Shown piece after piece: positions 2,919-55,802 of a stretch of DNA of 64,000 bases (the stretch's first letter is position 1; each line of letters begins with the position of its first letter). Below the pieces are notes generated by a model that was given only the letters and a program-made list of their open reading frames with translations, did no database searches and was not told where the DNA came from. This DNA is from a virus (lineage: Duplodnaviria > Heunggongvirae > Uroviricota > Caudoviricetes). Location: positions 1-64,000 of IMG/VR virus record IMGVR_UViG_2562617057_000010, one strand, 5' to 3'. Made by a program: the position numbers and the translations under genes.

Positions 2919-3862
2919 AGCGCTTGCTCCTTTGTTGGAGAGGCGCTAACCTATCACTTGCTTAAGGTAGATATGTTAGGGCCTCGGTTAAACAGAAATG
3001 TTTTCCGGGGCCTTTCCACATCCGGCCTTCGGGTATTCCCTCCGACCATCAGCCGAAAGGCACCCGCGATTATTCTACTGATTTCCCGCTTCTCTGCTAC
3101 GTAAAGTTTCACGTCACCCGTTCGGTTCTCCGCGAAAGTTAAAATTTTGCCGCTTTTGTCGCTGCTTTCGTGAGCGGTTTTTGCTTGCGCCTGAAAATAG
3201 TTACACAGTGAAACTGTGTAACGCTGCGCCAAAACGATCCTTGTCCAATGTTTTGTTTTTACCTTTTATTTCATTGCGTTAAGTGGTTCCTGTGCGTGGC
3301 ACTTTGGCGGCATTCAGATCCTTTAAAATGACGAAAGCAAAAAATAGTTTTGTTTTTCATATGGTTAATTTTTCTGTCAGATCCTTTTTTAACGTTAATC
3401 TGGCAAAGCCTGGCAATCTTTGACACTTTGTGCCAGATGGCTTTTTTGTAAAGCGCCAGTGCTGGCGCGATCTGGAGTGTCGTTTTGCGCAAATTTATTT
3501 GGCAAAAAATTTTTATCGTAAAGAGTGCAAGCGCGGGGGGCTTGCGCCCGTGCCGTGTGTTGGGCTCATCATGCCGTGAAATATCCACGTAGCGTGCGTG
3601 TACGCTTTCAGGCGTTACGAGCTGAATTCAGGGTGACTCGCGCGTTTATTTGCTTAAAGCATGTCGCAGAATGCGATACAGCGCGTCTGGTGGGGGGTGT
3701 TTTTCTGGGGGAATGCCCGTCGCGACGGGCTTTCGTCTGGTTCGATGAATGAAATTTATTGATATATGAATAATTTCACGAAATGCTTATTTGTCTGTAT
3801 TTTGTGGCATGATTCTTGAGTGGTAAACCGGGCTGCCTGTGCACCTCTTCTCATCTGTAAAC

Positions 3863-5551
3863 TTACTGCTTAATCACGGTACTGTACTTCGCTTTCAGGT
3901 TGCCTGCCATTGATGCCACCGTGTCTATGCTGCCGCTGTTGGTGGGCTGTGACGACCCGTTGTTGGTATGAGTGTGTTGTGCGGTGAGCTGCGCCAGTTG
4001 CTGAACGGTGTCGCAAAGATCCAGCATGAGGTTAAGTGTGTTGATGGTATTGCTGCCAAACCAGACCTGCGGGGCGATGATCTGTTGCATCTGGCCAGCG
4101 ACGGATTTTTTAATCCGGCCAATCTTTTCTTCCAGCGTTTTCGCCACATTGTGGGTGGTGCTTTCTGTGCTGGTTTGCCACTGGTGAGTAACGTCGAGTT
4201 TAGCGCTGTCGGCGTGCTGTATCAGTTTCTTCGTGGCGGCTACGGCATAGTCACCGTCTGCGATGTGCTGTATGTGGCCGCTCATCAGCTTATGAGTGCC
4301 GAGCACCGTTATGGTGTTGTTGGCCTTTACGGTAATATTACGAGTGGTACTGGTGCGCGTTTCCGTTGTGTTCTGGATGATGCGGTCGGTGGATTTCTCA
4401 CGAATAACCTGATCGGTTTCACGCTGCCATGTGCCATCTGTATGCACACGCTGGAATACCTCTGCGCGTTGCTGTTGTAGTTGTTCGCCGGGCTTTATTC
4501 CCGGCAGACTCTGGCCGCTGGCGTGAGTGCCGGTGATGATGGGTTTATCCGGCCTGCCGTCAACGTGGGCCAGTGTAACTATGGTTCCTGGGGGCGGGTA
4601 CTGGAATATCCCGGATTCATTGCCGGCCATTGGCACAGGAACGGGGACGGCGTTATATACCGGTGTGTTCTTATCGGGGGTGCCGTTCTCGTCGAGCAAC
4701 TGCACATTGACGGCGTAGCGTGGGCGAAATTCATCATGCAAATCCCCCTGGGTTGTGTTTTCAGTTGGTGAGATCACGCGTCCCATGCGTGGAAGGTGGG
4801 TTTTGTTGCCTATCTCGGGGTAAAGGGTTTCGATCTGGCGTTGTACTGGCGACTGACGGCCATCACTCCAGCTAATGATCATGCTGTCGCCCTGTAGCTG
4901 TACCTGATTTATACGGTGATCGTTCATGACCACGCCGGGGCGCATCATGGGAATCGTCTGTATTGTCCAGCCATTTGCTCCGTGATCACCTCTGGTGATA
5001 TCGACCGGCAATCTGGCAGGGCGTTTTGCAAAACGGCAGTCAGCAAAGCTTCCGGCGTAGATGATGCCGTCAACCGACGGATACCAGACGTAATCCGGGA
5101 TACTGAATATGCGGCCAAGCATGGCCATCAGCTGATAACCGTTGCCATTGTGGGTTAGATGAGGGACCGGAGTGGTGGTGTAGCCTGCCTTCGGGAGTTG
5201 TATGCGTAAACCTGTATTGCCTTCAATGTGTCCTGCGACCTGTTTCAGCGTCGGATGCTGCATGGAGATGTTGAGCGGGTATTGCAGAATAGCAGCAGCT
5301 TCGCGCACCATCAGCTTGTGCAGCCCTCTGCCTGTACAACTGTCACTTTCCACATATCCCGAAAACCACTTTACAGGCTGATCGTTGTAACCGATGGACA
5401 GCTCTACGGGTTTGCCGCGTAGCGGGGGAGTATTGTCGGCGGCGTTAATGGTGATAAAGCCGGTTCCCGCGCCGTTGAGACGCAACATGATGTTTTCTTC
5501 CACGACAGGATAACGCCTGCCGTTAATGCAGAGATCACGAATTGGTTTCAT
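3863..5551 (-). CDS. Putative baseplate hub / central spike fusion (gpD-like N-term, gpV/VgrG-like C-term)
   Basis: 562 aa; N-terminal segment resembles the Mu-like gp44 hub in this window (GKPVELSIGY...GYVESDS vs [10 protein letters not shown]...GYIDS); C-terminal repetitive beta-rich region; last gene of the tail operon. Confidence 0.4.
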   Translation of the reverse strand: MKPIRDLCINGRRYPVVEENIMLRLNGAGTGFITINAADNTPPLRGKPVELSIGYNDQPVKWFSGYVESDSCTGRGLHKLMVREAAAILQYPLNISMQHPTLKQVAGHIEGNTGLRIQLPKAGYTTTPVPHLTHNGNGYQLMAMLGRIFSIPDYVWYPSVDGIIYAGSFADCRFAKRPARLPVDITRGDHGANGWTIQTIPMMRPGVVMNDHRINQVQLQGDSMIISWSDGRQSPVQRQIETLYPEIGNKTHLPRMGRVISPTENTTQGDLHDEFRPRYAVNVQLLDENGTPDKNTPVYNAVPVPVPMAGNESGIFQYPPPGTIVTLAHVDGRPDKPIITGTHASGQSLPGIKPGEQLQQQRAEVFQRVHTDGTWQRETDQVIREKSTDRIIQNTTETRTSTTRNITVKANNTITVLGTHKLMSGHIQHIADGDYAVAATKKLIQHADSAKLDVTHQWQTSTESTTHNVAKTLEEKIGRIKKSVAGQMQQIIAPQVWFGSNTINTLNLMLDLCDTVQQLAQLTAQHTHTNNGSSQPTNSGSIDTVASMAGNLKAKYSTVIKQ

Positions 5552-6101
5552 TGCCTGCCGGGCCTATCCAGTTATTGAGTTTGTCTGACATTTTCCAGAA
5601 CCAGCCATGCTCTTCGTTTTTTTCGCCTTTGCCACCTGATTTGACGGCCTGTGCGTGCTGTTCAGCACTCTGATTGCCAGCCGGGCCGCGTCCTGTCGCC
5701 TTTTCGGCACTGCTGAGTTTTTCTTTCAGAGTGAAGTCAACTTTCCATGCCATCAGGCCTGTTTCAGGAGTTGCGCCCACGGCACCGGAAAAAATCCCTT
5801 GCTTCATATTGACCGCTTTAGCATCCATGTTGGCGATGCGGTAAACCTGTTGTGCACCGTTAGCGGCTCTGGCTTCAGCCAGACGAAATAAGCGTGTGAG
5901 TGCTTCCGGCTGGGTGAACGGAATCAGTCCGGAAATCTGCAGCTCCTTGGCTTTTACACCCTGTTCTGAAGTCGCTGTTGATGAGGATTTTCCGGAAGCG
6001 TCTTTGTCTTTGATGGTCAGCTTCACGCTGACACTTAAGCGTTTTAGCGCGATTATCTGACCATTAAGGGCCAGCAGTGGCGTTGTCGTGTTCTGGCTCA
6101 T
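5535..6101 (-). CDS. Phage protein of unknown function (tail/baseplate operon)
   Basis: 188-aa ORF co-oriented and overlapping neighbours in the tail operon; no recognisable motif. Confidence 0.35.
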   Translation of the reverse strand: MSQNTTTPLLALNGQIIALKRLSVSVKLTIKDKDASGKSSSTATSEQGVKAKELQISGLIPFTQPEALTRLFRLAEARAANGAQQVYRIANMDAKAVNMKQGIFSGAVGATPETGLMAWKVDFTLKEKLSSAEKATGRGPAGNQSAEQHAQAVKSGGKGEKNEEHGWFWKMSDKLNNWIGPAGNETNS

Positions 6102-7002
6102 TTTCTGCCTTCGTTATCCAGTTCAGCATCCCGGAAAGATCGCCTGCGAACAGGTGTGCATACGTCAGTGAAGCTGTGGGGTGCGGAATATTTTTCATCA
6201 TTTCCCGGCGGGCTAAAACGGCGTCGCCGGTATGCACGAACGCAAATGCTTTTGCCACTTTATCGCCTGCTCCTGCCAGTTCAGCGATTATCTGTTGCTG
6301 CAACCGTTGACGTTGTGCCTGAAAACCGGATAACGCGTTTTTCAGTGAGTCGACAGAGTTCAGCCCTTCGGTCTTCATAGCGTTAAGCGCGGTGTGGTTA
6401 CTGATGCTGTTCTGTAGTGTGCTGGCAATAAGTGGTTGTGGAGCGGGCAGTCCGTTCTGTGGTGTCGCCGGGATTTGCATTCTGGTGATTGCCTGGGTGA
6501 GCTGTGTTCTTGCGCGTCTTAGCGTCTGCGTCAGAGTGGGTAAAGGGAGTGTGTCTGCCAGTGCTGACAGTTGACGAATAAAATCGTTATTATTGCTGCC
6601 TGTTACCATTATGATGGCGATATCGCTGTTTTCGGTCAGGCCCGGGAGTTTGTTGTTAAGGTGGTTTATTGCGTTGACAGGGCTTAAATACGCACCGTCT
6701 GGCGTAATGTGCCCCGCTTCAACATCCCACGGATGTACGGCCATAGCTGAACATGTTATGGGGGTGATATTACCTGTCGGAAGCATCAGTTTTGCCGGAA
6801 ACCACATATCTGTACCTCTCTTGTCTGCTGTTTTCTGGAATAGCTGCCCGGTCAGAAATGTGCACGGACTGGTGCGTCGCAATTTGTTTCCACTCTGGCA
6901 TGCCGGTGTATTCGCAAAAGGCCTGGCGTTCGGGCCTTGGTTTTCACCCGGGCTTTTGTGGCCATTCAGGTTTTGCAGTGTCCACACGGCTGACCAGAAC
7001 AC
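6064..7002 (-). CDS. Phage protein of unknown function (start uncertain)
   Basis: 312-aa ORF co-oriented in the tail operon; 5' end overlaps the tail fibre assembly gene so the true start is probably internal. Confidence 0.3.
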
Positions 7003-7471
7003 TGTAGCGTTCCCATGCTTCCAGTCGTGTGCGTTCCTCGTCTGTTGCCATATTCAGCCTGACAGCGCGTTCCAGCGGCTGGATGACTGATTCAGCTTCG
7101 GAAAGTAACGCGGCCTTTTGTGATTCGGCCTGTTGTTGCTGCTCGCCTGCCGTATAAATCCGCTTAACCACAGCTCCGTCCTTAAACATCCACTTCCCGG
7201 AGTCATCAGCACGTCGGTTGGCGGTAATATCAGGAACTTCGACAACGCTGAAACCTTCAGGATTAAGCGTTGAGGTATCTTTGGTAATGGCAACAATAAT
7301 ATTATTTTCGTCGTAAACAATCTTTATTGTATCTGGCTGAAAGTTCTTCACTTCCTCATACCAGTTTTTCCCGTCTTCAGCGTAAAGCCAGATGACTCTG
7401 TGCTTCTTTGTTAACTCATACTGTTCCGGCGTTTTAGCGTTACCCGCTTTTATGTTCTTTAAGTGCATCAT
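6944..7471 (-). CDS. Tail fibre assembly protein (Tfa/U-like)
   Basis: 175 aa; near-identical over about 150 aa to the Mu-like U protein at 52477-53004; directly downstream of tail fibre gene. Confidence 0.85.
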
Positions 7472-7472
7472 A

Positions 7473-9479
7473 TTAAATACTCGCTACGTTATACCAGGTG
7501 CCATTAATCAGTTTTTGCAGCGGTCGGTAATACACACCGTTGACGTTATCCGCTGAGTTACGGCCGGTATCCGATATCGATATCCCTGACAGCCCGTGTC
7601 CCGAAGGTGCGCAAAATCTCCACGAAACGGTGTTACTGCCGGGGCTGTAATACATTTCATGACCATACCGCACATCCTGTACCCCCTCAGTTCGATGTTT
7701 ATAGCGGGCATCGAAGTTTCCGTAATTTAACGGAATTACCTGTCCGTTTACAGCGAATGTGATACTACCATCGGTATTTCTCTGGCTGTAGAAATGCCAG
7801 CCGGAATCATCACCAAGCTCTGCAACAACAGGCCTGGATGGATTACCCCACAAATAAAACGCTGCATTTTTCGTGGAGTTGTTGGCGCTGGATAACGTGA
7901 ATTTTTTAGCATTTCCGGCCTGAATATTCTTAAAAGCAATAGTCACACCATTCTGAAAACGGAATACTCGCTGACCATTTGCATAAACATCAAGCAGACC
8001 ATCGCCATTTTGTTTAAACCCGGTATCGTTATCTCCTAAAACGATTGAACTTCCACCTAACGCATTCGTCGTACCAATTCCAAGACAACCATTAATGACG
8101 GCATTAACCAGAATATTTAGTGTATCCCATTTGAGATTCATCAGGTCTTTAACCCGGCCGCCAGCGAGGCGGTGTCTCCATTTGAAATACTCATTGCCGT
8201 TGTCACCTGTTTCAAACCACATGTATGAATCAGTATCGCTGTCGGCATCATTTTTAAAACCAATCTTTGCCCAGTCAGTATTTCGAATCCAGGCAAGGGT
8301 TGAGTCGTTTTCAAAAGTAAGTCCACCGGACAAGGTATCGCCTGTCTTTTGGACTGCGTTACCAGCCTTGTTTACCGTTTCCTGTAAACCAACGTTCTGG
8401 ATAAACAGCGGTTTATCGGGAATATCTGCTCCGTTCTGATTTTTTTGCAGCGCTCCTGTGATGCGGATGTCGTCACCTGCGGCTACAGTGTCCTGCGCGG
8501 TGCCAACATTAAGGGTGGCGCTGTCGCCGAGGCCCATATGCTTTCTGGCATCAGACTGGGCCTGTTCACCTTTGTCAGCAATTTCTTTCAGGTTCCCGTT
8601 ACGGGTCAGGTATTCGCCATCAAGGCGGTCATTTAATGGTTTGCGGGTTTTTCGTATATCGGTGATCTCGCCACTGTCTGATATTGTGGCGATGGGTTCG
8701 ACATAATGGGCAAATCCTGAACTGTCGGTATAGTCGGCTGTTTTCTGACTCGTCAGGCTGAATATGGCTTTATTTTCCCCGGTCAGGGTACCGGTTAATG
8801 CCGCGTCAACATAAACAGTTTGTGAAATTCCGGTGGCGTATGTCAGTGTGCCTTGTTCATCCAGCTCCACACGTAATCCGCGCAGATAGGCAATACCCGG
8901 CGCGAAGGTCGCCTGCCCGGTAGCCTGAGCGGTGAGTTTAAAGGCGTTATTAAAGAACAGGCCAGGCCCGTAGATATCCAGCGCCGCTTTGCGGGTGGCC
9001 TCGTCCATGCCGTGAAGCCGTGCCGTAAAATCAATCTGCCAGGTGCTTACTGGCGTGGTGATGCCGGTTGCGGCGCTGGCTCCGGCGTATTCCATAATTT
9101 CAGAATAAATCAGGGTATTACCCTGTTTGCCGTCTGCGGTTTTTATTTTTTTCTGAGGGTGAAGATATACCACCATACAAAGTGTATTTGTGGTGCTGCT
9201 TACCAGACCCAGCCAGTTAAAAGTAAAATCACCCGTGGACTCCGGCAGGGTAACGGAGTAGGCGACGGTGTTCTCATTTACCATTCCGTTGCGATCAACG
9301 TTCTGGCGGTGAACTATCTGTGCATCGGGGGGCAATGGTTCGTTTTCAGACGGCGTGTCGGCAATGTTCAGATCCGGGATATTTGCAAATACAAACTGAT
9401 CAATGATGATACGGTTGCCGCCTGCGGCTTCCTGCGCTTTCAGGCGCTCAAATGCTGAAGTGATAGCGCTCTGGGTCAT
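7473..9479 (-). CDS. Tail fibre protein
   Basis: 668 aa; C-terminal [11 protein letters not shown]; about 90-aa block shared with the Mu-like S protein; contains a gix-like site. Confidence 0.85.
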
Positions 9480-10020
9480 TTTTCATCTCCGGTGCATAAA
9501 AATAGTGATAGCTGCCATGCCAGTATCCGTGTCCGATAACACAATCCGTGGATGTGATTATCTGAAGATGGTAACGGCGGCAGGTGCGACCGTACTGGCG
9601 AATTATCTGATTGAGTAATGTTGTATTTTCTGAGATCTGGTTGTCTGTCAGGCGCAAAAGAACAACATCCCAGTCTGTGCCTGGCTGGCGCTCCTGAATC
9701 TCCACATAACCGATCCCCAGTCGTTCAAAAATTGCCCTGAATCCCGCCACGCTGCCCGCGTCCTGTGCGTTGATAAAGGCATATTTGACACGCTTTCTGT
9801 ACAGCGTGAGCGGTTCGCCGTCAAAACGGGCTATATCATATTGCCAGGCTGTCAGGTTCAGAATGGATTCCGCACATGTCAGTGGGTCGGTCTGGCTCAG
9901 TGGCCATGTTACCCAGTCGTGCACCTTTCCCCAGAAACGGATAAAGGTGTTTTTCAGGCGGAGCACATCGCCGCGATTCAGCCATGACGGCAACTTAATG
10001 TCCGGTGATTTATCAGGCAT
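9448..10020 (-). CDS. Baseplate protein (gpI / Mu gp48-like)
   Basis: 190 aa, positioned between J-like baseplate gene and tail fibre. Confidence 0.55.
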   Translation of the reverse strand: MPDKSPDIKLPSWLNRGDVLRLKNTFIRFWGKVHDWVTWPLSQTDPLTCAESILNLTAWQYDIARFDGEPLTLYRKRVKYAFINAQDAGSVAGFRAIFERLGIGYVEIQERQPGTDWDVVLLRLTDNQISENTTLLNQIIRQYGRTCRRYHLQIITSTDCVIGHGYWHGSYHYFYAPEMKNDPERYHFSI

Positions 10021-19728: not shown

Positions 19729-19980
19729 ATGAGACAAAGAGAAGATCGCGACCGCGATTGGCCTTCGCTAAAGATTCAGCTGGCGCTCAAAGATAACGGG
19801 TGGTCTTCCTTCCGGGAGCTTTCACTCCATGCTGGTTATGCTCAGGATTCACTGAAAGCGGTGGTTCGTACACCGAACAAAAAATACGAACGCGTAATTT
19901 CTGACGCTATAGGTGTACCGCCAGAAATCATCTGGCCCAGCCGGTATCGTAACGATGGATTTATCAGGAAGGCGTCGTGA
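19729..19980 (+). CDS. ner: Ner-like DNA-binding protein
   Basis: 83 aa with Ner/Nlp signature PEIIWPSRY; first gene of early operon. Confidence 0.8.
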   Translation: MRQREDRDRDWPSLKIQLALKDNGWSSFRELSLHAGYAQDSLKAVVRTPNKKYERVISDAIGVPPEIIWPSRYRNDGFIRKAS

Positions 19981-19981
19981 T

Positions 19982-22087
19982 ATGCAGTCGTACGTTACCG
20001 TAAATGACCTGCTCGGCGTACCAGGAATGCCAGCCACCACAAAAGGCATCCGACAGGCGTTACAGCGTTTTTCTCGTGATCTTGGTGACGTTAGTCGCCG
20101 TCGGGAAGGCACAAAAGCCATTGAGTACCACATTGATTGTCTGCCTGAAATAACACGAAAGGCACTGCGTGAACGCTATGTGGAACAGCTGGTGGCTACA
20201 GAGAACAATGTTTCTGAAGTGAAAGCTGTTACCAGAAAAACACGCAATCCTGACGCTGTCCAGGCAATCGAAGCATATCGCGGTTCTCCACAACTGATGG
20301 AAGAACGCCTGAATGCGCTGACCGAAAACCAGCGCCGGGTATCTGAAGCAAGGGCTGCACTGGTGGTGGAGGTGCTGAAGCTGGAAAGCGACGGTAATCT
20401 CGGGCGACTGAAAGCCATCAACTTTCTTGTTGAAAAAGCCCGTAAAGGTGAATTACCGGAGCGCCTGCAACAAGCCGCAGTTAATGCCAATGCAAAGCGT
20501 GGTGCCAATCGCACCATCAGTCGTGACCCGCTTTATCAGTGGGTGCTGAAATACAACCAGTCGCAGAACGCAGCCGAACGACTGCTGTTACTGGCACCAG
20601 GAAAGCGCGACGAAATAAAACCGGAAGAAATTAGCTGGCTACCTGAATTTCTGGCGCAGTATCGCCAGGCGAATGGCAGACCTATGTCAGAAGCCTACGA
20701 GGATTTTGTCGCGGAATGGCAGCGTCGCCATGCTGACGAACCATACATGCTGGAGGTGATGCCTTCTTACGATGTGGTGCGTTATGCCATGAAGAAATTG
20801 CCGGAAGTGGTGAAACAAAAAGGGCGTGTTACCGGCAGTGAATACCGTCAGCTTGAAGGATTCACCCGCCGCGACTGGACAGCTATGCCGGTGAATTATG
20901 TCTGGATTGGTGACGGTCACGGTATGAAGCTGAAATGTGCGCATCCGGTTCACGGGCGTCCATTTTCGCCGGAAGTTACGTTTGTCATTGATGGTGGAAC
21001 CCGGTTTGTGGTTGGCTGGAGTCTTGATCTTGCTGAAAACGTGTTTGCTGTTGCCGGTGCGATACAGCACGGTATTCGTAATCACGGGAAACCCTTCCTG
21101 TATTACTCGGATAATGGTTCCGGTGAAACGGCAGACATGCTGGATAAAGAGATCGTCGGGATTCTGCCCCGTCTGGGGATTAACCACCCCACCGGTATTG
21201 CCGGAAATCCGCAGGGGCGCGGCATTATTGAGCGCCTGAACCGGACGCTGCCGATGCGTATAGCCAGGAGGTATCGCACCTATTTTGGCAGGGGTGCTGA
21301 CCGGGAATCGTTGCGAGTACTTAATCGTGATCTGCGTTCAGCGTTTAATGCCCTGCAACAGGACAAGCCGCTGAATGCTCGCCAGAAATCTGCAATGCGC
21401 GAGCTGCCGTCCTGGTCAGAACTGATTGAGGCTATTCGCGAAGGCGTGGAATGGTACAACAACCGCCCGCATTCTGAACTGCCGATGAAACCAAACGGGA
21501 AGCATTGCAGCCCGGCTGAGTTCAGGAAAAAACGCCTGGCGGAAGAAAACACCGAAATTGAGTGGCTGAGCGATCTTGAGCTGCGCGACATGTTCCGTCC
21601 GATGGTGGAGCGTCCGGTAAGACGCTGTGAAATCAAATGGCTTGGGAATATTTATTACGCGCCGGAGCTGCGTGATGAACATGGTCGCAAAGTGCTTATC
21701 AGCTATGACATTCATGATGCAGAGCGAATTACAGTGCGCCGTAAGGATGGCAGTTTTATTTGTGAGGCGATATGGAACGGCAATAAACGCGCAGCCTTTC
21801 CTGTCAGTGCGGAATATCACAAACAGCAGCAGCGTATTAAAGGAATGCGCAAACGCGCTGAGGGAAAAATTCGTGATGCTGAAGATGAAGGTATTCAGGT
21901 TATTGAACAAAAAACGACAGAACCCTGGCTGGGGAATGTTTATCGCCCTGTGGGTAATGTGGTGACAGTTCAGCCTCAGGCTCCTGAGGAGACGCTTGAT
22001 AATGCATACAACGCTGAGCGTGATGAATATCTGAATCATTCACTGGATATTCTGGAACAGAAAAGACGTAAAAAGCTGTTTAATTAA
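19982..22087 (+). CDS. A: MuA-like DDE transposase
   Basis: about 702 aa from ATG 19982; integrase-core motifs; C-terminus ERDEYLNHSLDILEQKRRKK resembles the MuA C-terminal tail. Confidence 0.9.
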   Translation: MQSYVTVNDLLGVPGMPATTKGIRQALQRFSRDLGDVSRRREGTKAIEYHIDCLPEITRKALRERYVEQLVATENNVSEVKAVTRKTRNPDAVQAIEAYRGSPQLMEERLNALTENQRRVSEARAALVVEVLKLESDGNLGRLKAINFLVEKARKGELPERLQQAAVNANAKRGANRTISRDPLYQWVLKYNQSQNAAERLLLLAPGKRDEIKPEEISWLPEFLAQYRQANGRPMSEAYEDFVAEWQRRHADEPYMLEVMPSYDVVRYAMKKLPEVVKQKGRVTGSEYRQLEGFTRRDWTAMPVNYVWIGDGHGMKLKCAHPVHGRPFSPEVTFVIDGGTRFVVGWSLDLAENVFAVAGAIQHGIRNHGKPFLYYSDNGSGETADMLDKEIVGILPRLGINHPTGIAGNPQGRGIIERLNRTLPMRIARRYRTYFGRGADRESLRVLNRDLRSAFNALQQDKPLNARQKSAMRELPSWSELIEAIREGVEWYNNRPHSELPMKPNGKHCSPAEFRKKRLAEENTEIEWLSDLELRDMFRPMVERPVRRCEIKWLGNIYYAPELRDEHGRKVLISYDIHDAERITVRRKDGSFICEAIWNGNKRAAFPVSAEYHKQQQRIKGMRKRAEGKIRDAEDEGIQVIEQKTTEPWLGNVYRPVGNVVTVQPQAPEETLDNAYNAERDEYLNHSLDILEQKRRKKLFN

Positions 22088-22121: not shown

Positions 22122-23075
22122 ATGAATATTTCTGATATTCGCGAAGAACTACGCACACTTGTAGAAAGTGAAAAAGTCACTTTTAAACAAATTGCTATTG
22201 AGAGTGATATTTCTACCGGGACTGTCAGTGCGTTTATTAACGATAAATACAGCGGCGATAATGAACGTATCGCACAGGTACTGAAGTGCTGGCTTGACGA
22301 TTATCTTGCTGCCGCAGACCTGCCGGAATTGCCTGGTTTTGTTCAAACGCAGACGGTAAAACAAATCTGGACAAGTATACGCTTTGCCAGCCTGACAGAG
22401 AGTATTGCTGTTATCTGCGGTAATCCTGGTGTGGGTAAATCTGAAGCAGCCAAAGAGTATCGCCGTACCAATAATAACGTCTGGATGATCACCATGGCAC
22501 CATCCCGTGTCAGTGTTCTGGAATGTCTTACGGAACTGGCGTTTGAGCTGGGAATGAACGGTATCCCACGCTGCAAGGGGCCGTTATCCCGTGAATTGCG
22601 CCGTCGTCTTGGGGGAACGCATGGGGTGGTTATTGTAGATGAAGCAGACCATCTTGATATTGCGGCGCTGGAAGAACTTCGTTTGTTACAGGAATCAACC
22701 CGTATTGGCCTGGTATTGATGGGTAATCACCATCTTTACACGAATATGACGGGGGGGAGCAAAACGGTTGAGTTTGCCCGTCTGTTTTCGCGCATAGCAA
22801 AACGCACGGCTATCAAAGCGCCCAAAGTTAACGATGTAAAAGCGATTGCGGAAGCCTGGGATGTTACCGCCAAAAAAGAGCAGGAATTCTTACTGGAGAT
22901 TGCACAGAAACCAGGTGCAATTCGCACCATGACTTACACATTACGTCTTGCTGCCATGAATGCTTACGGTAAAGGCAAACGTGTTAACGAAGATTACCTG
23001 CGTGAGGCTTACGAAGAACTGGATCAGGATGTGGATGTTCAGGAACAGTTGGGTATAAGGAGAGCGAAATCATGA
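22122..23075 (+). CDS. B: MuB-like transposition ATPase
   Basis: 317 aa, Walker A GNPGVGKS, Walker [10 protein letters not shown]. Confidence 0.9.
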
Positions 23076-45717: not shown

Positions 45718-47205
45718 ATGTTTGAAGATGCTTTAAATGCCGTTAATGCTGTCCGGGATAAAACCGGTGGAGGCAGGAAAACAACCGGCAAAGGCACGTT
45801 CCGTAACGTGCCGTTTCTCGTCATCGAGGAGCAAAAACAGGCTGGCGGACGTCGCCTGGTTAAACGCGAGTACCCGTTACGTGATACCGGCGGCGTCAAT
45901 GACCTGGGGAAAAAGCTTCGCTCCCGTACATTCAGCGCCTGCATTCTGAACAGTAACGCAGAAACAGCCAGAGATGAAGCGGATGCGCTGATGGATGCTC
46001 TTGATGCTCCGGGCAGCGGTGAGCTGGTACATCCTGATTTCGGCACTGTGGACGTCATGGTGGATTCATGGGAATGCCGCACTAAAGCGGATGAACTGAA
46101 TTATTACGCGTTCACCGTTACCGTTTATCCGTCGTTGCAGGATACTGCCCCGGACGCAGAAACAGACACCAGTGCAGCCGTACCGGCACAGGCTGTTGCT
46201 GTAACCGGTTCTCTGGGGGATACGCTGTCCTCTGTCTGGCAGACCGTAAAAGATGGCACTGCGGCGGCAACCGCCGTGATGGAAGCTGTAACCGGTGTCA
46301 TCGATGATATCAGTGATGCGGTGGACAATCTGGGGGTTACGCAGACTGTCAGCGGTCTGATGGGATCGCTTTCTGCGATGAAAGGCTCTGTGACCAGCCT
46401 GATTAACCAGCCTGCCATGCTGGCCTCCTCGCTGATGGGGGCGCTGTCCGGCGTTTCATCGTTATGCGATACCCGGACAGCATTTTCCACATGGAACCGT
46501 CTGGCGCAGCGATTCGAACGTCGCCATGCCGCCACCGCAGGCAGACAGGGGGCAATCACAACCTCGTACAACAGTCCGGTTGCAGAAAAAAATATTGCCA
46601 CACTGAACTACGTCATGCTGGCAGCGGCGCAGACATACCGGGCAGAAGCTGCCAGCCAGGCACTGACTGCGGCACTGGATTTCAGTCGCCGGATGGATAA
46701 TGCCGCCCGTACACCTGTACTGGATGCCCCGTCCACCACAACCGGCACAGCCAGCGGGGCCAGCAGCACATCTGCTACCGTCACACAGGGACAGTTACAG
46801 TTAACTACCATAACCCCGAACGGCGGCTTTTCACAGGTATCCTTTTCAGACAGTGGTACAGCCACGCCCCCGGTATTTGAAAGTGTGTCCGATATCGGAA
46901 AAACAGCCGCCATGCTGGGGGCTGCACTGGATACCGTCATTCTGACGGCATCTGAGCAGGGCTTTTCGACAGACAGCGTTCAGCTTACGCAACTGCGTCT
47001 GCTGGTTGTTGCCGATCTGGAAAAACGCGGGCTGCAACTGGCGGGCAGTGAAACGCACCGCCTGCCGGAGACGATGCCTGCAATGGTGGCCCTGTACCGT
47101 TACACAGGAAACAGCCGGAACTGGCAACGGCTGGCCCGCAGGAACGGTATCAGCAACCCGTTGTTTGTTCCCGGTGGCGTCAGTATTGAGGTGATTAATG
47201 AGTAA
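45718..47205 (+). CDS. N: DNA circularisation protein (Mu N-like)
   Basis: 495 aa after tape measure. Confidence 0.75.
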
Positions 47206-50429: not shown

Positions 50430-50962
50430 CACCCTGGCAGACGGCCTTTCTGCAATTACTGCCGTCAGGGCTTGCCTGGAATAAAAGCCCCGACAGCAAA
50501 TTATCTGCGCTGGCGCAGGCCATCAGCGACGTGATTGCCACTGCGGCGGATGATGCGCGGCAAATACTGCGGGAGCGTTTCCCGTCCACATCCCGCTGGT
50601 ATCTGGGTGAGTGGGAATCACTTCTGGGGTTGCCGGACTGTACAAGCGAAAACGGCACCCTGTCCGAACGCCAGCGGGCTGCCGCGAATAAAATGCGTAT
50701 GACCGGCAATCTGAGTCGGCGCTTTTATGAATGGCTGGCTGCGCAGTACGGTTTTACCGTCAGGCTGACGGATTCCACAGAAGGCCAGTGGGTTACGCAG
50801 GTCAATATTTACGGTATTAAAAATTATCGCAACGCAACGGTGCTGGATAATGTTCTGACGCCGTTACGTGTTTATGAATCGGGTGCGCTGGAATGTTTAC
50901 TGGAGAAATATAAACCCGCGCATCAGATTTATAAATTTGTTTACCATGACGGAGATAACTAA
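50420..50962 (+). CDS. Baseplate protein (gpI/gp48-like)
   Basis: 180 aa. Confidence 0.7.
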   Translation: MAVTPWQTAFLQLLPSGLAWNKSPDSKLSALAQAISDVIATAADDARQILRERFPSTSRWYLGEWESLLGLPDCTSENGTLSERQRAAANKMRMTGNLSRRFYEWLAAQYGFTVRLTDSTEGQWVTQVNIYGIKNYRNATVLDNVLTPLRVYESGALECLLEKYKPAHQIYKFVYHDGDN

Positions 50963-52473
50963 TGTTTTATATTGATAACGACAGCGGCGTAACCGTCATG
51001 CCGCCCGTATCCGCCCAGCGTAGTGCTATCGTTCGCTGGTTTTCAGAAGGTGACGGGAATAATGTTATCACATGGCCCGGCATGGACTGGTTTAATATTG
51101 TGCAGGCGGAGTTATTAAACACGCTGGAAGAAGCCGGTATTCAACCGGATAAAACAAAATTAAACCAGCTTGCACTGTCCATTAAAGCCATTATGAGCAA
51201 TAACGCGCTGCTGATAAAAAATAACCTCAGCGAAATTAAAACTGCCGGGGCATCAGCACAGCGTACAGCACGTGAAAATCTGGATATCTATGATGCCAGC
51301 CTGAACAAAAAAGGACTCGTTCAGCTAACCAGTGCCACTGACAGCCCCAGTGAAACGCTGGCAGCCACCGCAAAAGCGGTGAAAATTGCGATGGATAATG
51401 CCAGTGCCCGTCTGGCAAAAGACCGGAACGGAGCAGATATTCCCAATAAGCCGCTGTTTATCCAAAACGTCGGTTTACAGGAAACGGTAAACCGGGCCAG
51501 GAACGCTGTGCAAAAAAATGGCGATACCTTGTCCGGCGGACTTACTTTTGAAAACAACTCAATCCTTGCCTGGATTCGGAATACTGACTGGGCAAAGATT
51601 GGTTTTAAAAATGATGCCGACAGCGATACTGATTCCTACATGTGGTTTGAAACAGGCGACAACGGCAATGAATATTTCAAATGGAGACACCGCATCATTG
51701 GCACCCGGCCTAAAGACCTGATGAATCTTAAATGGAATGCTTTGTCTGTTCTTGTTAAAGCCCTTTTCAGCAGTGAAGTGAAAATATCGACAGTCAATGC
51801 ACTGAGGATATTTAATTCATCTTTTGGTGCCATTTTTCGCCGTTCTGAAGAATGCCTGCATATCATCCCTACACGAGAGAATGAGGGAGAAAATGGTAAT
51901 ATAGGGCCATTACGCCCCTTTACGCTTAATCTCAGAACTGGCCGGATAAGCATGGGGCATGGTCTGGTTGTTACAGGAGATATATTTGCAAACCGTTTTG
52001 CAATTAACAGTAGTACCGGCATGTGGATTCATATGCGTGACCAGAATGTTATTCTGGGCCGTAATGCGGTATCCAACGATGGTGCGCAGGCATTGCTTCG
52101 CCAGGACCATACCGACCGTAAATTCGTAATTGGTGGGCTGGGGAATAAGCAATTTGGCATCTACATGATTAATAACTCAAGGACAGCCAATGGCACCGAT
52201 GGTCAGGCGTACATGGATAATAACGGTAACTGGCTTTGTGGTGCGCAAGTTATTCCCGGCAACTATGGCAATTTTGATTCCAGATATGTGAAAGATGTTC
52301 GACTTGGTACTCGTGTTGTTCAGGTCATGCAAAGAGGCGTGATGTATGAAAAATCAGGTCATGTAATAACAGGGCTTGGCATTATTGGCTCTGTTGATGG
52401 TGATGACCCAGCAGTATTCAGACCAATACAAAAATACATCAATGGCACATGGTATAACGTCGCACAGGTATAA
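50962..52473 (+). CDS. S: Tail fibre protein S (constant plus variable part)
   Basis: 503 aa, C-terminal [11 protein letters not shown]; contains gix-like site at 51458-51483. Confidence 0.85.
   Translation: MFYIDNDSGVTVMPPVSAQRSAIVRWFSEGDGNNVITWPGMDWFNIVQAELLNTLEEAGIQPDKTKLNQLALSIKAIMSNNALLIKNNLSEIKTAGASAQRTARENLDIYDASLNKKGLVQLTSATDSPSETLAATAKAVKIAMDNASARLAKDRNGADIPNKPLFIQNVGLQETVNRARNAVQKNGDTLSGGLTFENNSILAWIRNTDWAKIGFKNDADSDTDSYMWFETGDNGNEYFKWRHRIIGTRPKDLMNLKWNALSVLVKALFSSEVKISTVNALRIFNSSFGAIFRRSEECLHIIPTRENEGENGNIGPLRPFTLNLRTGRISMGHGLVVTGDIFANRFAINSSTGMWIHMRDQNVILGRNAVSNDGAQALLRQDHTDRKFVIGGLGNKQFGIYMINNSRTANGTDGQAYMDNNGNWLCGAQVIPGNYGNFDSRYVKDVRLGTRVVQVMQRGVMYEKSGHVITGLGIIGSVDGDDPAVFRPIQKYINGTWYNVAQV
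51458..51483. other. gix/hix-type invertase crossover site
   Basis: TTATCCAAAACGTCGGTTTACAGGAA, one mismatch from the recalled Mu gix sequence. Confidence 0.65.
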
Positions 52474-52476
52474 ATC

Positions 52477-53004
52477 ATGCAGCATTTAAAAAACATCAGG
52501 TCAGGAAACCCAAAGATAAAAGAGCAATACCAATTAACAAAGAATTTTGACGTAATCTGGTTGTGGACAGAAGACGGAAAAAACTGGTATGAGGAAGTGA
52601 AGAACTTTCAGCCAGATACAATAAAGATTGTTTACGATGAAAATAATATTATTGTCGCCATCACTAAAGATGCCTCCACGCTTAATCCTGAAGGCTTTAG
52701 CGTCGTTGAGGTCCCCGATATAACAGCAAATCGTCGTGCCGATGATTCCGGGAAGTGGATGTTTAAGGACGGAGCTGTGGTTAAGCGGATTTATACGGCA
52801 GACGAACAGCAGCAACAGGCCGAATCACAAAAGGCCGCATTGCTTTCCGAAGCTGAATCAGTCATCCAGCCGCTGGAGCGCTCTGTCAGGCTGAATATGG
52901 CGACGGATGAGGAACGCGCACGACTGGAGTCATGGGAACACTATAGTGTTCTGGTCAGCCGTGTGGATACGGCAAATCCTGAATGGCCACAAAAGCCTGA
53001 ATAA
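52477..53004 (+). CDS. U: Tail fibre assembly protein U
   Basis: 175 aa. Confidence 0.85.
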
Positions 53005-53032
53005 AAATTAAGGCCCGATAGCGGGCCTTGTT

Positions 53033-53566
53033 TCATTCTGGTTGTTCTGGAAACGTTACTGGCAGGCTGGAGGTGTCTGTGGATTCGACCTTCTGCGCAT
53101 AGAGCATCCACTCGGTTAATTTTTGTTTATTCTCGTCGGAAATGATGCCCAGCCGTAGCTGTGAGTCCCATAGCTGAGTTTTATCCCTGACAAGTTGCAA
53201 CAGACTTTGCTTTTCATTTTCCGCCTGTTGCCTCTGTTCTTCCCCGGTATAAGTTCGCTTTATCACTACGCCATCTTTGAACATCCATTTACCCGAAATA
53301 TCAGCCCGGCGATTTGCTGTAATATCAGGTAATTCAATGACGCTTGCGCCTTCCGGATTAATTGCTGAAACATCCTTTTCAATACAAATAATAACGCCGT
53401 TGTGGTCATAGACCATTTTCAACGTATCAGGCTGAAAGTTCTTTTGCTCCTCATACCAGTTTTTCCCATCCTCTGTATAAAGCCATTTGATGTTAAATTG
53501 CTTTGTTAGCTGGTATTGCTCTTTTGTTTCAGGATTACCAGCAGAAATGTTTTTTAAGTGCATCAT
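53033..53566 (-). CDS. Alternative tail fibre assembly protein U' (inverted copy)
   Basis: 177 aa on opposite strand, convergent with U, same fold family. Confidence 0.8.
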   Translation of the reverse strand: MMHLKNISAGNPETKEQYQLTKQFNIKWLYTEDGKNWYEEQKNFQPDTLKMVYDHNGVIICIEKDVSAINPEGASVIELPDITANRRADISGKWMFKDGVVIKRTYTGEEQRQQAENEKQSLLQLVRDKTQLWDSQLRLGIISDENKQKLTEWMLYAQKVESTDTSSLPVTFPEQPE

Positions 53567-53568
53567 CG

Positions 53569-54081
53569 TTAAATACTCCCCGCGTTATACCACGTTCCAT
53601 TAATGCAATACTGAACTGGCCTTGCCTGAGTTGTATCAATTAGTGCATCTCTGTTTGAGTTAACGGAACCGGTAACAACATAACCTGACCTGTCAGACCA
53701 GCCGGGACCATTCCATGTCTGAACAGATGACAGACCACCAAGGCGAATACCTGTAATAAACCTTGAGTTACATTCTGCCTGCGTATATGCGCCAACATCT
53801 CTCGCTGATGGCTTGCGTGTTGTGGTGTAAAACTCTGACCAGCCAGCCTCAAATCCATAACCATCACGCGCTGAACGATAAAAAATACCGCCGTTCTTAT
53901 AATTCACACGGAACTGTACAGCAGGGCAACTCCCCGTATTCATATTGAAGTGGAGTATTAATGCTGTTGCGCCTTTGATATCTGCATCATAAACACCGCT
54001 AATCAATGCAATATAGAAAACGACGATCGAATCAATTGAATCGATCGGTAATACAGATCGATTATGTCCTGATAACCACAC
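53569..54081 (-). pseudogene. Alternative tail fibre variable segment Sv' (no constant region, no adjacent gix or gin)
   Basis: ORF with tail-fibre C-terminus YCINGTWYNAGSI; 5' part overlaps the GATC cluster of the mom regulatory region, so coding extent is uncertain. Confidence 0.5.
54020..54062 (+). promoter_or_regulatory. mom upstream regulatory region with clustered Dam (GATC) sites
   Basis: GATC at 54025, 54043, 54056 within 35 bp, about 75 bp upstream of com. Confidence 0.6.
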
Positions 54082-55100: not shown

Positions 55101-55802
55101 TTATACCGCCCGTAATGCGCGCAGACGGGCGGCTATTTTGTTTCGTATGGCGCGAACACCTGCTTTGGGAGTGGTGCTGTGCGCACGGGCCATCCACTCA
55201 TCGGCGCTACGTAGTTTCGCCACGTCGTAAATGGCGGCCGGGGTTGTCGGTTTGCCATCGCTGTCCCGTAACAGGTTAAGACCGGCGAATTTGTACCATC
55301 TGGCAACTATCTCTTCGTGCAGTGTCCAGTCTTTTTCGATATGGCTCATCACGCGGCTGAAATAGGGCTCGACGGAAAGGCCTTTATCAAACTGAATCTG
55401 TGCCCACTGCATGACCTCATCGGCGACGAACGTTGGCAAATCACGGTCAAAGCGTGGTGGCATGGGTTGATTCTGTCCGATGGCGATATCGGCCCATTCC
55501 AGAGCTTTGTCCATTTCGCCGGTATCAAACAGCCAGACGATGCACCAGGTAAACGGGATGTATTTGTACTCCTCGCCGCTTTGCAGCCACGCCTCAATCG
55601 TCGGCATCCAGCGCGGCAGCAGGGATTCACGCTTGAATGCCACACGATCGGCGTTGGTGGCGCAACTGCTCACAGCCCTGCAGTCGATTTCCAGTTGCGC
55701 CAGTTGCAGATGAAGACTGTCGCGTACGGTCAGTGCCTCGCGGTGTTCCATTGCCTGCTGCGCGGCCAGTCTGGCTCTGAACTTTTGCGCCGGAGTCTGC
55801 AT
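55101..55802 (-). CDS. M: Terminase small (endonuclease) subunit, P2 gpM-like
   Basis: 233 aa; stop lies 7-12 bp from the Mu-like right end. Confidence 0.7.
   Translation of the reverse strand: MQTPAQKFRARLAAQQAMEHREALTVRDSLHLQLAQLEIDCRAVSSCATNADRVAFKRESLLPRWMPTIEAWLQSGEEYKYIPFTWCIVWLFDTGEMDKALEWADIAIGQNQPMPPRFDRDLPTFVADEVMQWAQIQFDKGLSVEPYFSRVMSHIEKDWTLHEEIVARWYKFAGLNLLRDSDGKPTTPAAIYDVAKLRSADEWMARAHSTTPKAGVRAIRNKIAARLRALRAV

Follow-up and report, generated by a model that had tools for sequence, protein, structure and literature searches.

A conserved orf33-orf34-orf35 tail block follows the fibre-assembly gene of a probable HP1-type prophage

Within a 64,000-nucleotide stretch of viral DNA (the window, by which we mean the whole stretch analysed), the two minus-strand genes at 5535-7002 and the adjoining gene for a predicted hub/spike protein make up the orf33-orf34-orf35 block of HP1-like phages, an ordinary conserved tail-baseplate block. 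The region is likely to encode two genes at the core of tail morphogenesis in an HP1-type (Peduoviridae) prophage, coupled with the hub/spike gene. That both genes, here called ORF33 and ORF34 after their HP1 counterparts, are structural or morphogenetic tail genes and not cargo we hold with high confidence, and two 'hypothetical' genes of this prophage can be named tail genes.

Gene boundaries and purifying selection

The region and its immediate flanks contain the following features.

3863..5551, minus strand: ORF35 homologue, 562 aa, predicted fused hub/spike protein; last gene of the tail operon
5535..6101, minus strand: ORF34 homologue, 188 aa, ATG start; PF25759 match and predicted tail-tube fold
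6064..6807, minus strand: ORF33 homologue, 247 aa, ATG at 6807; HP1 orf33 / PHROG 1677 family
6064..7002, minus strand: 312-aa ORF call with GTG start; an over-extended version of ORF33
6808..7002, minus strand: non-genuine 65-codon N-terminal extension of the 312-aa call; not conserved
6944..7471, minus strand: tail-fibre assembly (Tfa) gene of P2/Mu/P1 type; Caudo_TAP E 7e-37 (Pfam)

A sequence-only reading of this DNA had described two ORFs, of 312 and 188 aa, between the Tfa and hub/spike genes. Two long ORFs do lie there on the minus strand, and the length of the shorter one holds, to which a 188-aa protein on record is 99% identical (P0049) and whose homologues align from the N-terminus, but the longer frame is over-extended. 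We place the start of ORF33 at ATG 6807 because all ORF33 homologues begin at a conserved 'MW' at this position, because a GAGAGG Shine-Dalgarno sequence lies at 6820-6815, 7 nt 5' of the ATG, because a 247-aa protein on record is 100% identical to ORF33 from this codon onwards (P0001), and because the 65 codons upstream are not conserved: they contain a stop codon in a 99%-identical relative (L013), and are interrupted by stops or swapped for other sequence in close relatives (L016-L018). The extension is made up of the 136-nt spacer between the Tfa gene and ORF33 (6808-6943) together with an out-of-frame overlap with the 3' end of the Tfa gene. On these sequence features, the true gene is 6064-6807, encoding 247 aa, and the 312-aa call should be cut to that length.

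Consecutive reading frames overlap, by 38 nt between ORF33 and ORF34 and by 17 nt between ORF34 and ORF35. Compared with a Salmonella relative that is 82-88% identical, ORF33 and ORF34 have dN/dS values of 0.205 and 0.088, respectively, against 0.085-0.105 for the neighbouring baseplate genes. Given these values and the hundreds of homologues found for each, ORF33 and ORF34 are genuine genes under purifying selection, beyond anything expected of chance ORFs.

The HP1-type block and the slot behind the fibre genes

The orf33-orf34-orf35 block occupies the post-fibre slot in HP1, K139, phiO18P, phi3, F108, SI7, YenM324, ESSI-2 and ACA1 (the counterpart blocks being orf37-39 in K139, Orf42-44 in F108 and gp46-49 in ACA1), and the order Tfa/fibre, orf33, orf34, orf35 is common to reference phages of nine genera. 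Among 91 related loci, ORF34 neighbours the hub gene in the same orientation in every one, and in 90 the trio is complete, with a co-oriented ORF33 homologue adjoining ORF34 and ORF35 following downstream. Salinivibrio phage SMHB1 carries ORF34 and ORF35 in a genome devoid of any ORF33 homologue, so that ORF33 may be dispensable or replaceable.

In the Haemophilus phage HP1 (Hpunavirus), the three genes agree with those of the window in order, strand, overlapping ends and position at the end of the tail operon. By tblastn, ORF34 and HP1 orf34 share 45% identity across residues 1-133; over their full lengths ORF35 and ORF33 are 34% (E 4e-116) and 25% (BLASTP E 9e-17) identical to HP1 orf35 and orf33. 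The prophage in the window adjoins a tRNA-Leu gene, as the HP1 prophage does. It differs from HP1 in its fibre C-terminus and Tfa, which are of the P2/Mu/P1 type where those of HP1 are of the HP1 type, and in being broken up by a nested Mu-like prophage; the left end of Mu found no match in this element, whose ends are unlike those of Mu. ORF35 belongs to PHROG 2258 ('baseplate protein', E 6e-196), with Phage_base_V and vgr_GE matches at residues ~254-355, and reads from its sequence as a fusion of a gpD-like hub with a spike carrying a gpV/VgrG-like OB domain; a fusion of the gpD and gpV homologues in HP1 has been noted in a supplement (PMC10612066).

The sequence-only reading had equated the slot behind Tfa with the Z/fun locus of P2, a variable slot after the Tfa gene G, and had proposed that the two ORFs might be accessory cargo. 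The positional argument fails because the prophage has HP1-type, not P2, gene order, and the likeness to Z/fun extends to the position right downstream of Tfa only. Cargo serving exclusion, defence or lysogenic conversion in a Z/fun-equivalent slot would be in keeping with that superficial resemblance, with the want of a known domain in ORF33 and with public annotation, which labels all three genes 'hypothetical'. We nevertheless regard it as very improbable: the block is conserved across the loci and genera described above, and it is co-oriented and, through its overlapping frames, translationally coupled with the hub gene. ORF33 and ORF34 have a GC content of 0.51-0.52, which falls among the values for the structural genes around them (0.50-0.56), and no minus-strand promoter-like or terminator-like site was found inside the region, so that neither ORF has the variable occupancy, atypical composition or own promoter and terminator of a moron locus. 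Neither shows similarity to P2 Z or Fun, and PADLOC-DB returned no family at E<=0.1 for ORF33 (as 247 or 312 aa), ORF34 or ORF35. The two kinds of evidence that the same reading had named as contradicting cargo were both obtained, namely baseplate homology, in the form of a curated baseplate family and a tube fold for ORF34, and presence in virions, seen for the ORF33 homologue ACA1 gp46 (PMC10612066). Its other proposal, that the ORFs encode baseplate components, is supported. As a defence or exclusion candidate, the locus is not worth chasing.

The Tfa region (6930-7500) has ~90% nucleotide identity to P1 and SfMu (from query position 3131), the Tfa protein shares 89% amino-acid identity with U from the nested Mu-like prophage, and the GC content here is 0.44-0.47. 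Tfa and the fibre C-terminus thus form an exchangeable cassette with its boundary at ~6931, just past the Tfa stop codon and upstream of ORF33. This bears on whether ORF33, which comes straight after Tfa both here and in the majority of enteric relatives, could itself be fibre-related, either as a second fibre chaperone or as an adaptor docking the fibre to the wedge. We consider such a role most unlikely: the exchanged cassette ends before ORF33, and relatives with unrelated Tfa genes retain the same ORF33; a retroelement cassette in ACA1 and three small ORFs in F108 part orf33 from the fibre genes, with orf34 still adjoining it; and ORF33 has no Caudo_TAP or fibre domains.

ORF34, a probable tube initiator

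ORF34 matches the Pfam family PF25759, 'HP1 ORF34 baseplate complex protein', with 167.3 bits against a cut-off of 27 (E 3.6e-49), its residues 10-173 aligning with positions 3-169 of the 180-position model, and the family is carried by all 31 of its database homologues. Structure prediction, one of the checks proposed with the sequence-only reading, yielded for ORF34 an AF2 model composed of a beta-sandwich and helix (core pLDDT 74-90), in which we recognize the tail-tube beta-sandwich with inserted hairpin that characterizes tube initiators; in the predicted layout, a low-complexity linker joins the tube-fold core (~9-127) to a conserved C-terminal helix (~167-179). The earlier statement that the two ORFs show no recognisable structural motif is therefore corrected for ORF34, whereas it stands for ORF33, which has neither a Pfam family nor a fold match.

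From this family membership and predicted fold, ORF34 is very likely the tube initiator, a functional counterpart of P2 gpU (PF06995), whose relatives include pyocin R2 PA0626, Mu gp43 (N), Pam3 gp17 and XM1 gp11. Beyond the tail-tube fold, the likeness extends to size (188 versus 159 aa), to a C-terminal helix that follows a flexible linker and resembles the wedge-contacting helix of gpU, and to gene order, ORF34 coming immediately before the hub gene just as gpU precedes gpD in P2 and N precedes P in the Mu-like prophage of the window. By contrast, sequence homology to gpU could not be demonstrated: BLASTP gave E 0.15, hhalign of an ORF34 profile (n=14) against a gpU profile (n=7) gave E 0.13 and a negligible probability with co-linear aligned segments, and Pfam returned no PF06995 match. 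A scan of viral contigs with P2 gpU returned only matches at least 98% identical to it, which were of no use for a profile. ORF34 further lacks any LysM, helix-rich or ripcord domain, and the wedge and fibre genes stand between its gene and that of the tape measure, a departure from the T-U-D order of P2. For gp47, the ORF34 homologue of ACA1, an HHpred link to gpU has been called 'uncertain', and the protein was not detected by virion mass spectrometry (PMC10612066).

A different function is implied by the names that many public records give to ORF34 homologues, among them 'DNA-binding protein', 'nucleoid DNA-binding protein' and 'adenine glycosylase'. Such labels seem to have spread from record to record through automatic annotation. 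We find no DNA-binding or glycosylase domain in ORF34 with Pfam or NCBIfam, its only significant family is that of the baseplate complex protein, and its predicted fold is that of a tail tube, which together make a DNA-binding protein or glycosylase barely credible and the homologues in those records mislabelled.

Taking ORF34 as a tube initiator, its ring, stoichiometry and contacts can be modelled on P2 gpU, Mu gp43 and pyocin PA0626. By this analogy, six copies of ORF34 would form a ring atop the trimeric ORF35 hub and nucleate the tube, whose protein (15353-15814) would polymerise around the tape measure, and the C-terminal helix of ORF34 would probably contact the (gpJ)2-gpI wedges, as the gpU helix does in P2; the P2 roles of gpU, gpX and gpD have been described (bioRxiv 10.64898/2026.09.14.750843). 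The products of ORF33, ORF34 and ORF35 would assemble with the remaining baseplate proteins, encoded at 9448..11519.

9448-10020, minus strand: gpI-like wedge protein; Tail_P2_I E 8e-7
10013-11191, minus strand: gpJ-like wedge protein; Baseplate_J E 7e-27
11181-11519, minus strand: DUF2590 protein in the gpW position (HP1 orf28); Pfam DUF2590 E 1e-38

The DUF2590 protein is taken to be the sheath initiator, a role assigned from its position and the literature.

ORF33, a lineage-specific tail protein

ORF33 belongs to PHROG 1677 (E 3.7e-41) and has both the family and the position of HP1 orf33. The family has a variable central helical segment and two length classes, ORF33 falling in the short one (~247 aa) as against 297-306 aa in K139 and phi3 and 293 aa in phiO18P. 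No Pfam family was found for it, and Pfam searches with 13 diverse members at E<=10 gave scattered chance matches, none common to more than two members; NCBIfam has no family for either ORF33 or ORF34, and comparison of both with the sequences of solved structures, as single sequences and as family profiles, gave nothing significant. A literature search returned no functional study of HP1 orf33 or orf34 or of vB_YenM_324. The structure model of ORF33 is poor (pLDDT 59.7) and matches the fold of none of the solved baseplate proteins, BH1a and LysM proteins included. The only invariant residues are G, L and P, with no conserved residue of catalytic type, and we regard ORF33 as a non-enzymatic, HP1-lineage-specific tail protein.

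Its homologue in ACA1, gp46, is a distant relative that was detected in virions by mass spectrometry with 2 spectra, a level similar to that of the ACA1 hub and spike proteins (5 and 2 spectra; PMC10612066). Simple baseplates are held to need a glue element, the LysM and BH1a types being mutually exclusive (PMC11915804). No LysM domain occurs in any of the 18 proteins of the tail module, and phmmer found no gpX homologue. The HP1 lineage seems to make do with a minimal contractile baseplate that lacks a LysM glue protein, and the most obvious candidate to take its place is the orf33 family.

Because of its synteny, the detection of its homologue in ACA1 virions and the lack of a LysM or gpX alternative, ORF33 may be the protein that fills the gap between the hub and initiator on one side and the wedges on the other. 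We put forward this assignment, as a baseplate hub-wedge connector, tentatively. Its equivalents would be the LysM protein gpX in P2, BH1a in Pam3, XM1 and E217, and helix-rich or ripcord domains in Mu, Milano and pyocin R2; if it is a glue protein, ORF33 would help to keep the baseplate in its pre-contraction state. Its resemblance to gpX and the BH1a glue proteins would lie in the low copy number at which a relative carries it in virions, and in the lack of LysM and gpX from this lineage, which fits the mutual exclusivity of glue types (PMC11915804). ORF33 is, however, larger than gpX (247 versus 67 aa), its profile gave no significant match to gpX or to the N proteins of Mu and the Mu-like prophage, and it has neither a LysM domain nor any sequence or fold similarity to gpX or the solved BH1a chains (Pam3, XM1 gp12 and E217), which places it outside both of these glue types. 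More tentative still is the idea that ORF33 represents a new class of proteins that glue or trigger the baseplate, its fold being new to solved contractile injection systems; it would have taken the place of gpX in the HP1 lineage of Peduoviridae, would join the hub and tube initiator to the wedges, and would be released on contraction.

The same features admit another reading, in which ORF33 is a morphogenetic factor, a chaperone or scaffold for hub or baseplate assembly, and not a stoichiometric load-bearing part. Its want of any fold or sequence match to solved baseplate components would suit such a factor, as would a dN/dS more relaxed than that of its structural neighbours (~0.09-0.10), the variable helical segment and length classes of the family, the complete lack of the gene in SMHB1 and the mere 2 spectra of its homologue in ACA1. 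We think this unlikely, since gp46 was detected in purified ACA1 virions about as strongly as the hub and spike proteins, and since HP1-type modules would otherwise be left without any glue element. Once the orf33 protein is placed, the inventory of HP1-type tail parts would be complete, and hub-wedge coupling would have one more solution.

To look for fusions that might reveal a partner domain, an ORF33 profile was searched against 1.84 billion cluster representatives; it gave 331 matches, and among the 150 of these that were listed all are free-standing proteins of 103-314 aa, with no fusions.

The tail module and its gene limits

The two genes under study lie in a complete contractile-tail module that runs 5' to 3' along the minus strand, on which all genes of interest are encoded. 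Its signature families (the HP1 Orf24 tube, the DUF2586 sheath, DUF2590 and HP1_ORF34), together with gene order, assign this tightly packed module to the HP1 branch of the Peduoviridae, not to P2 itself. The pair is real but ordinary: these are the homologues of HP1 orf33 and orf34 (hereafter ORF33 and ORF34) in an HP1-type prophage, followed by the homologue of orf35, the hub/spike gene ORF35.

Genes of the HP1-type tail module, in minus-strand order (assignments from Pfam)
18154-18699 (-), head-completion protein gpL
17678-18157 (-), gpR
16946-17674 (-), gpS-like protein
15818-16942 (-), sheath (DUF2586)
15353-15814 (-), tube (Phage_HP1_Orf24)
15006-15344 (-), holin
14566-15009 (-), lysozyme
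14095-14559 (-), Rz
13792-14091 (-), tail chaperone
11523-13604 (-), tape measure
11181-11519 (-), DUF2590 in the gpW position, putative sheath initiator by position and literature
10013-11191 (-), gpJ
9448-10020 (-), gpI
7473-9479 (-), tail fibre
6944-7471 (-), tail-fibre assembly protein (Tfa)
5535-7002 (-), ORF33 and ORF34 as originally called
3863-5551 (-), hub/spike protein, 562 aa

The two ORFs that the sequence-only reading had noted in 5535-7002 were confirmed, one of 188 aa (5535..6101, ATG start) and one of 312 aa (6064..7002, GTG start). The first, ORF34, has correct limits, with a 99%-identical 188-aa protein in the database and homologues that align from residue 1. The second is an over-call: the Met-Trp corresponding to the ATG at 6807 is the conserved start of every ORF33 homologue, GAGAGG precedes that ATG at a spacing of 7 nt, the database holds a 100% identical protein of 247 aa, and the 65 codons upstream are not conserved, containing a stop in a 99%-identical relative and giving way to a different Tfa gene or stop-rich sequence in Salmonella relatives. 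The true ORF33 gene is 6064-6807, and the 312-aa gene model should become one of 247 aa. In strain CFSAN029787, PGAP calls ORF33 still shorter, at 226 aa, with loss of the conserved N-terminus. In the Pseudomonas phage phi3 (NC_030940.1; our locus L006), the orf33 homologue (1578-2498, 306 aa, starting MTWAPV...) is missing from the RefSeq annotation, and the first 232 codons of the hub gene appear unannotated, since annotation of the ORF at 3015-4688 starts only at 3717.

Purifying selection acts on both genes: measured against one relative 82-88% identical, dN/dS is 0.205 for ORF33 and 0.088 for ORF34, with the hub, gpJ, gpI and DUF2590 genes at 0.085-0.105. The stop codon of the hub/spike gene is followed, about 130 nt further on, by a perfect GC-rich palindrome, GCCCGTCGCGACGGGC (3715-3730), a possible terminator of the tail operon by analogy with terminator T39 after orf39 in K139.

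Conserved block or variable cargo

One option in the sequence-only reading was accessory cargo (exclusion or defence) occupying, after Tfa, the slot of Z/fun. That slot is true of the P2 order (G, Z/fun, FI), whereas in the HP1 type the fibre genes are followed by the orf33-orf34-orf35 block. Fibre genes, a protein of ~200-310 aa, a protein of ~160-190 aa and the hub/spike protein succeed one another in nine phages: HP1 (orf33-35), K139 (orf37-39), phiO18P, phi3, F108, SI7, vB_YenM_324, ESSI-2 and ACA1. Across 91 loci with an ORF34 homologue (from 80 of 480 IMG/VR contigs, ten reference phages and one E. coli genome; the 80 are the best-scoring of the 480, so that the sample is biased towards enteric relatives), ORF34 has an ORF33 homologue as its immediate same-strand neighbour in 90, and an ORF35 homologue lies downstream in every one.

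Local sequence features agree with this arrangement. The GC content of both ORFs (0.51-0.52) lies within that of the neighbouring structural genes (0.50-0.56), while the fibre C-terminus and Tfa are lower (0.44-0.47); nucleotide similarity to the fibre-Tfa cassette of P1, Mu and P2 breaks off at ~6931, immediately after the stop codon of Tfa, so the exchangeable cassette ends before ORF33. Reading frames overlap by 38 nt (ORF33/34) and 17 nt (ORF34/35), and no promoter-like or terminator-like sites were found on the minus strand inside the two-ORF region. PADLOC matched neither ORF, and comparison with the Z/Fun protein of P2 gave no similarity. The conserved block, GC content, cassette boundary, overlaps, lack of an own promoter or terminator and lack of a PADLOC match rule against variable cargo or defence, a reading of the two genes that is not supported.

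ORF34, ORF33 and a proposed hub-wedge connection

The other option, that the genes encode baseplate components, fared better. By sequence ORF34 is assigned to Pfam PF25759, 'Bacteriophage HP1 ORF34 baseplate complex protein' (167 bits against a cut-off of 27; E 3.6e-49), and it matches PHROG 1398 (E 1.7e-54). Homologues were recovered by tblastn in 75 phage records, the hosts being Haemophilus, Pasteurella, Vibrio, Aeromonas, Pseudomonas, Pseudoalteromonas, Salinivibrio and enteric bacteria, and an alignment of 14 (10 of them from phages of 10 genera) has sixteen invariant columns. In the AF2 model (24 sequences, mean pLDDT 64), a confident core at residues 9-127 (pLDDT 74-90), which combines a beta-sandwich with a single helix and a long hairpin that is poorly ordered, is followed by a low-complexity linker and a conserved C-terminal helix. 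The comparison list for ORF34 contains Pa193 ripcord-1 (9.1) and ripcord-2 (8.5), Milano gp25 (8.9), Pam3 tube initiator gp17 (8.8), Mu DNA-circularisation protein N (8.3), the phiCD508 LysM protein (8.1), the PVC and AlgoCIS initiators (7.9-8.0), pyocin R2 PA0626 (7.9), XM1 gp11 (7.4) and P1 PmgG (7.4).

In the P2 virion structure, the tube initiator consists of six gpU copies seated on the hub trimer of gpD, and gpU contacts the wedge through a C-terminal helix (bioRxiv 10.64898/2026.09.14.750843). ORF34 resembles gpU in its place relative to the hub gene, its size and its analogous C-terminal helix, and by this analogy is very probably a tube initiator that works like gpU. Comparison of ORF34 with gpU did not show sequence homology (BLASTP E 0.15; profile-profile E 0.13), for which reason ORF34 is not filed in PF06995; the authors of the ACA1 genome paper call the gpU link uncertain (PMC10612066). 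The names 'DNA-binding protein', 'nucleoid DNA-binding protein' and 'adenine glycosylase', widespread on ORF34 homologues (for example at loci L001 9710-10255, L006 2495-3034 and L009 2504-3049, and on database proteins P0049-P0076), have no domain evidence in support and were rejected.

ORF33 matches PHROG 1677, of unknown function (E 3.7e-41), aligns over its full length with HP1 orf33 (25% identity, E 9e-17) and also aligns, in the conserved N-terminal part, with K139 orf37. When 1.84 billion cluster representatives were scanned in full with HMMER, the family came to 331 members, of which the 150 listed are 103-314 aa long and all free-standing, so that no informative fusion is found among them. 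No ORF33 database homologue carries a Pfam domain or name, and 13 diverse members gave no consistent Pfam match even at E<=10. Gly, Leu, Pro, Trp and Ala make up most of the invariant or near-invariant positions, and the alignment shows no catalytic-site-like pattern, which speaks for a structural protein and against an enzyme. The AF2 model is weak (62 sequences, pLDDT 59.7, pTM 0.60), with an alpha/beta domain from residues 1-105 and 188-228 (pLDDT 65-84) split by a low-confidence helical insert, residues 106-185, the most variable part of the family. In virion mass spectrometry of ACA1, the homologue gp46 ('HHpred match to HP1 orf33') gave 2 spectra, the hub 5 and the spike 2 (PMC10612066). 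ORF33 is a conserved tail protein, virion-associated in this relative, and the gp46 spectra are direct published evidence on where the protein is located.

In simple contractile baseplates, the gap between hub/initiator and wedges has to be filled by an element that also keeps the wedges in place until triggering (PMC11915804). This 'glue' is the LysM protein gpX in P2 (bioRxiv 10.64898/2026.09.14.750843), small BH1a proteins in Pam3, XM1 and E217, a helix-rich or LysM domain of the initiator in Mu and Milano, and the ripcord in pyocin R2, LysM and BH1a being reported as mutually exclusive (PMC11915804). None of the 18 proteins of the window's HP1-type module has a LysM domain; a phmmer search for gpX homologues found none in the window, in SMHB1 or in the HP1, ESSI-2 and YenM324 tail regions, a negative of little weight given the low sensitivity of a single-sequence query; and ORF34, the putative initiator, has only a short helix at its C-terminus. 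Directly upstream of the initiator and hub genes and coupled to them, in the position that glue genes occupy in pyocin R2 and XM1, ORF33 is the best candidate for the glue, an assignment we make tentatively; it would fill the hub/initiator-wedge gap and hold the wedges until triggering. Two results restrain the glue model most: no fold match was found for ORF33, and Salinivibrio phage SMHB1 (NC_047775.1; loci L009 and L093), which has an ORF34 homologue and a split ORF35, has no ORF33 homologue in the whole of its 32.8-kb genome, the only exception in the 91 loci. The main alternative, which we consider unlikely, is that ORF33 is an assembly factor loosely retained in the particle; SMHB1 is a natural test case for the dispensability of ORF33.

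Fibre cassette and prophage context

A complete Mu-like prophage (about 18,730-55,095) is nested in the HP1-type prophage, at an intergenic site between the genes for small terminase gpM (55101-55802) and gpL. The HP1-type genome resumes at ~55.1 kb with small terminase, P2-family capsid, terminase and replication gene A. Motifs TTCAAGATAA and TTATCTTGAA, repeated near both ends of the Mu-like prophage, look like putative transposase binding sites.

Features of the nested Mu-like prophage
19001-19621 (-), repressor
19913-22087, transposase A
22122-23075, MuB
45718-47205, N
50962-54081, invertible fibre segment
54243-54968, Mom

In the fibre regions of the two prophages (6931-9479 and 50962-53004), Tfa of the HP1-type prophage and U of the Mu-like prophage share 89% amino-acid identity, Tfa is ~90% identical in nucleotides to P1 and SfMu, and shared segments of the two fibre C-termini are 62% identical. 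With the lower GC content and the boundary past the Tfa stop, these identities point to a host-range cassette exchanged horizontally between unrelated tail types.

The HP1-type prophage adjoins tRNA-Gly, -Cys and -Leu(taa) genes (152-454), as it does in E. coli CFSAN029787. Between tRNA-Leu (368-454) and the prophage right end lies an IS3-family insertion sequence (835-2048; orfA 1722-2048, orfB 835-1725), which we take to be IS629-like and which is absent from the corresponding stretch of CFSAN029787. The prophage is rare in E. coli, where 6 of 5,426 complete genomes carry at least 80% of the region at at least 99% identity, and common in Salmonella.
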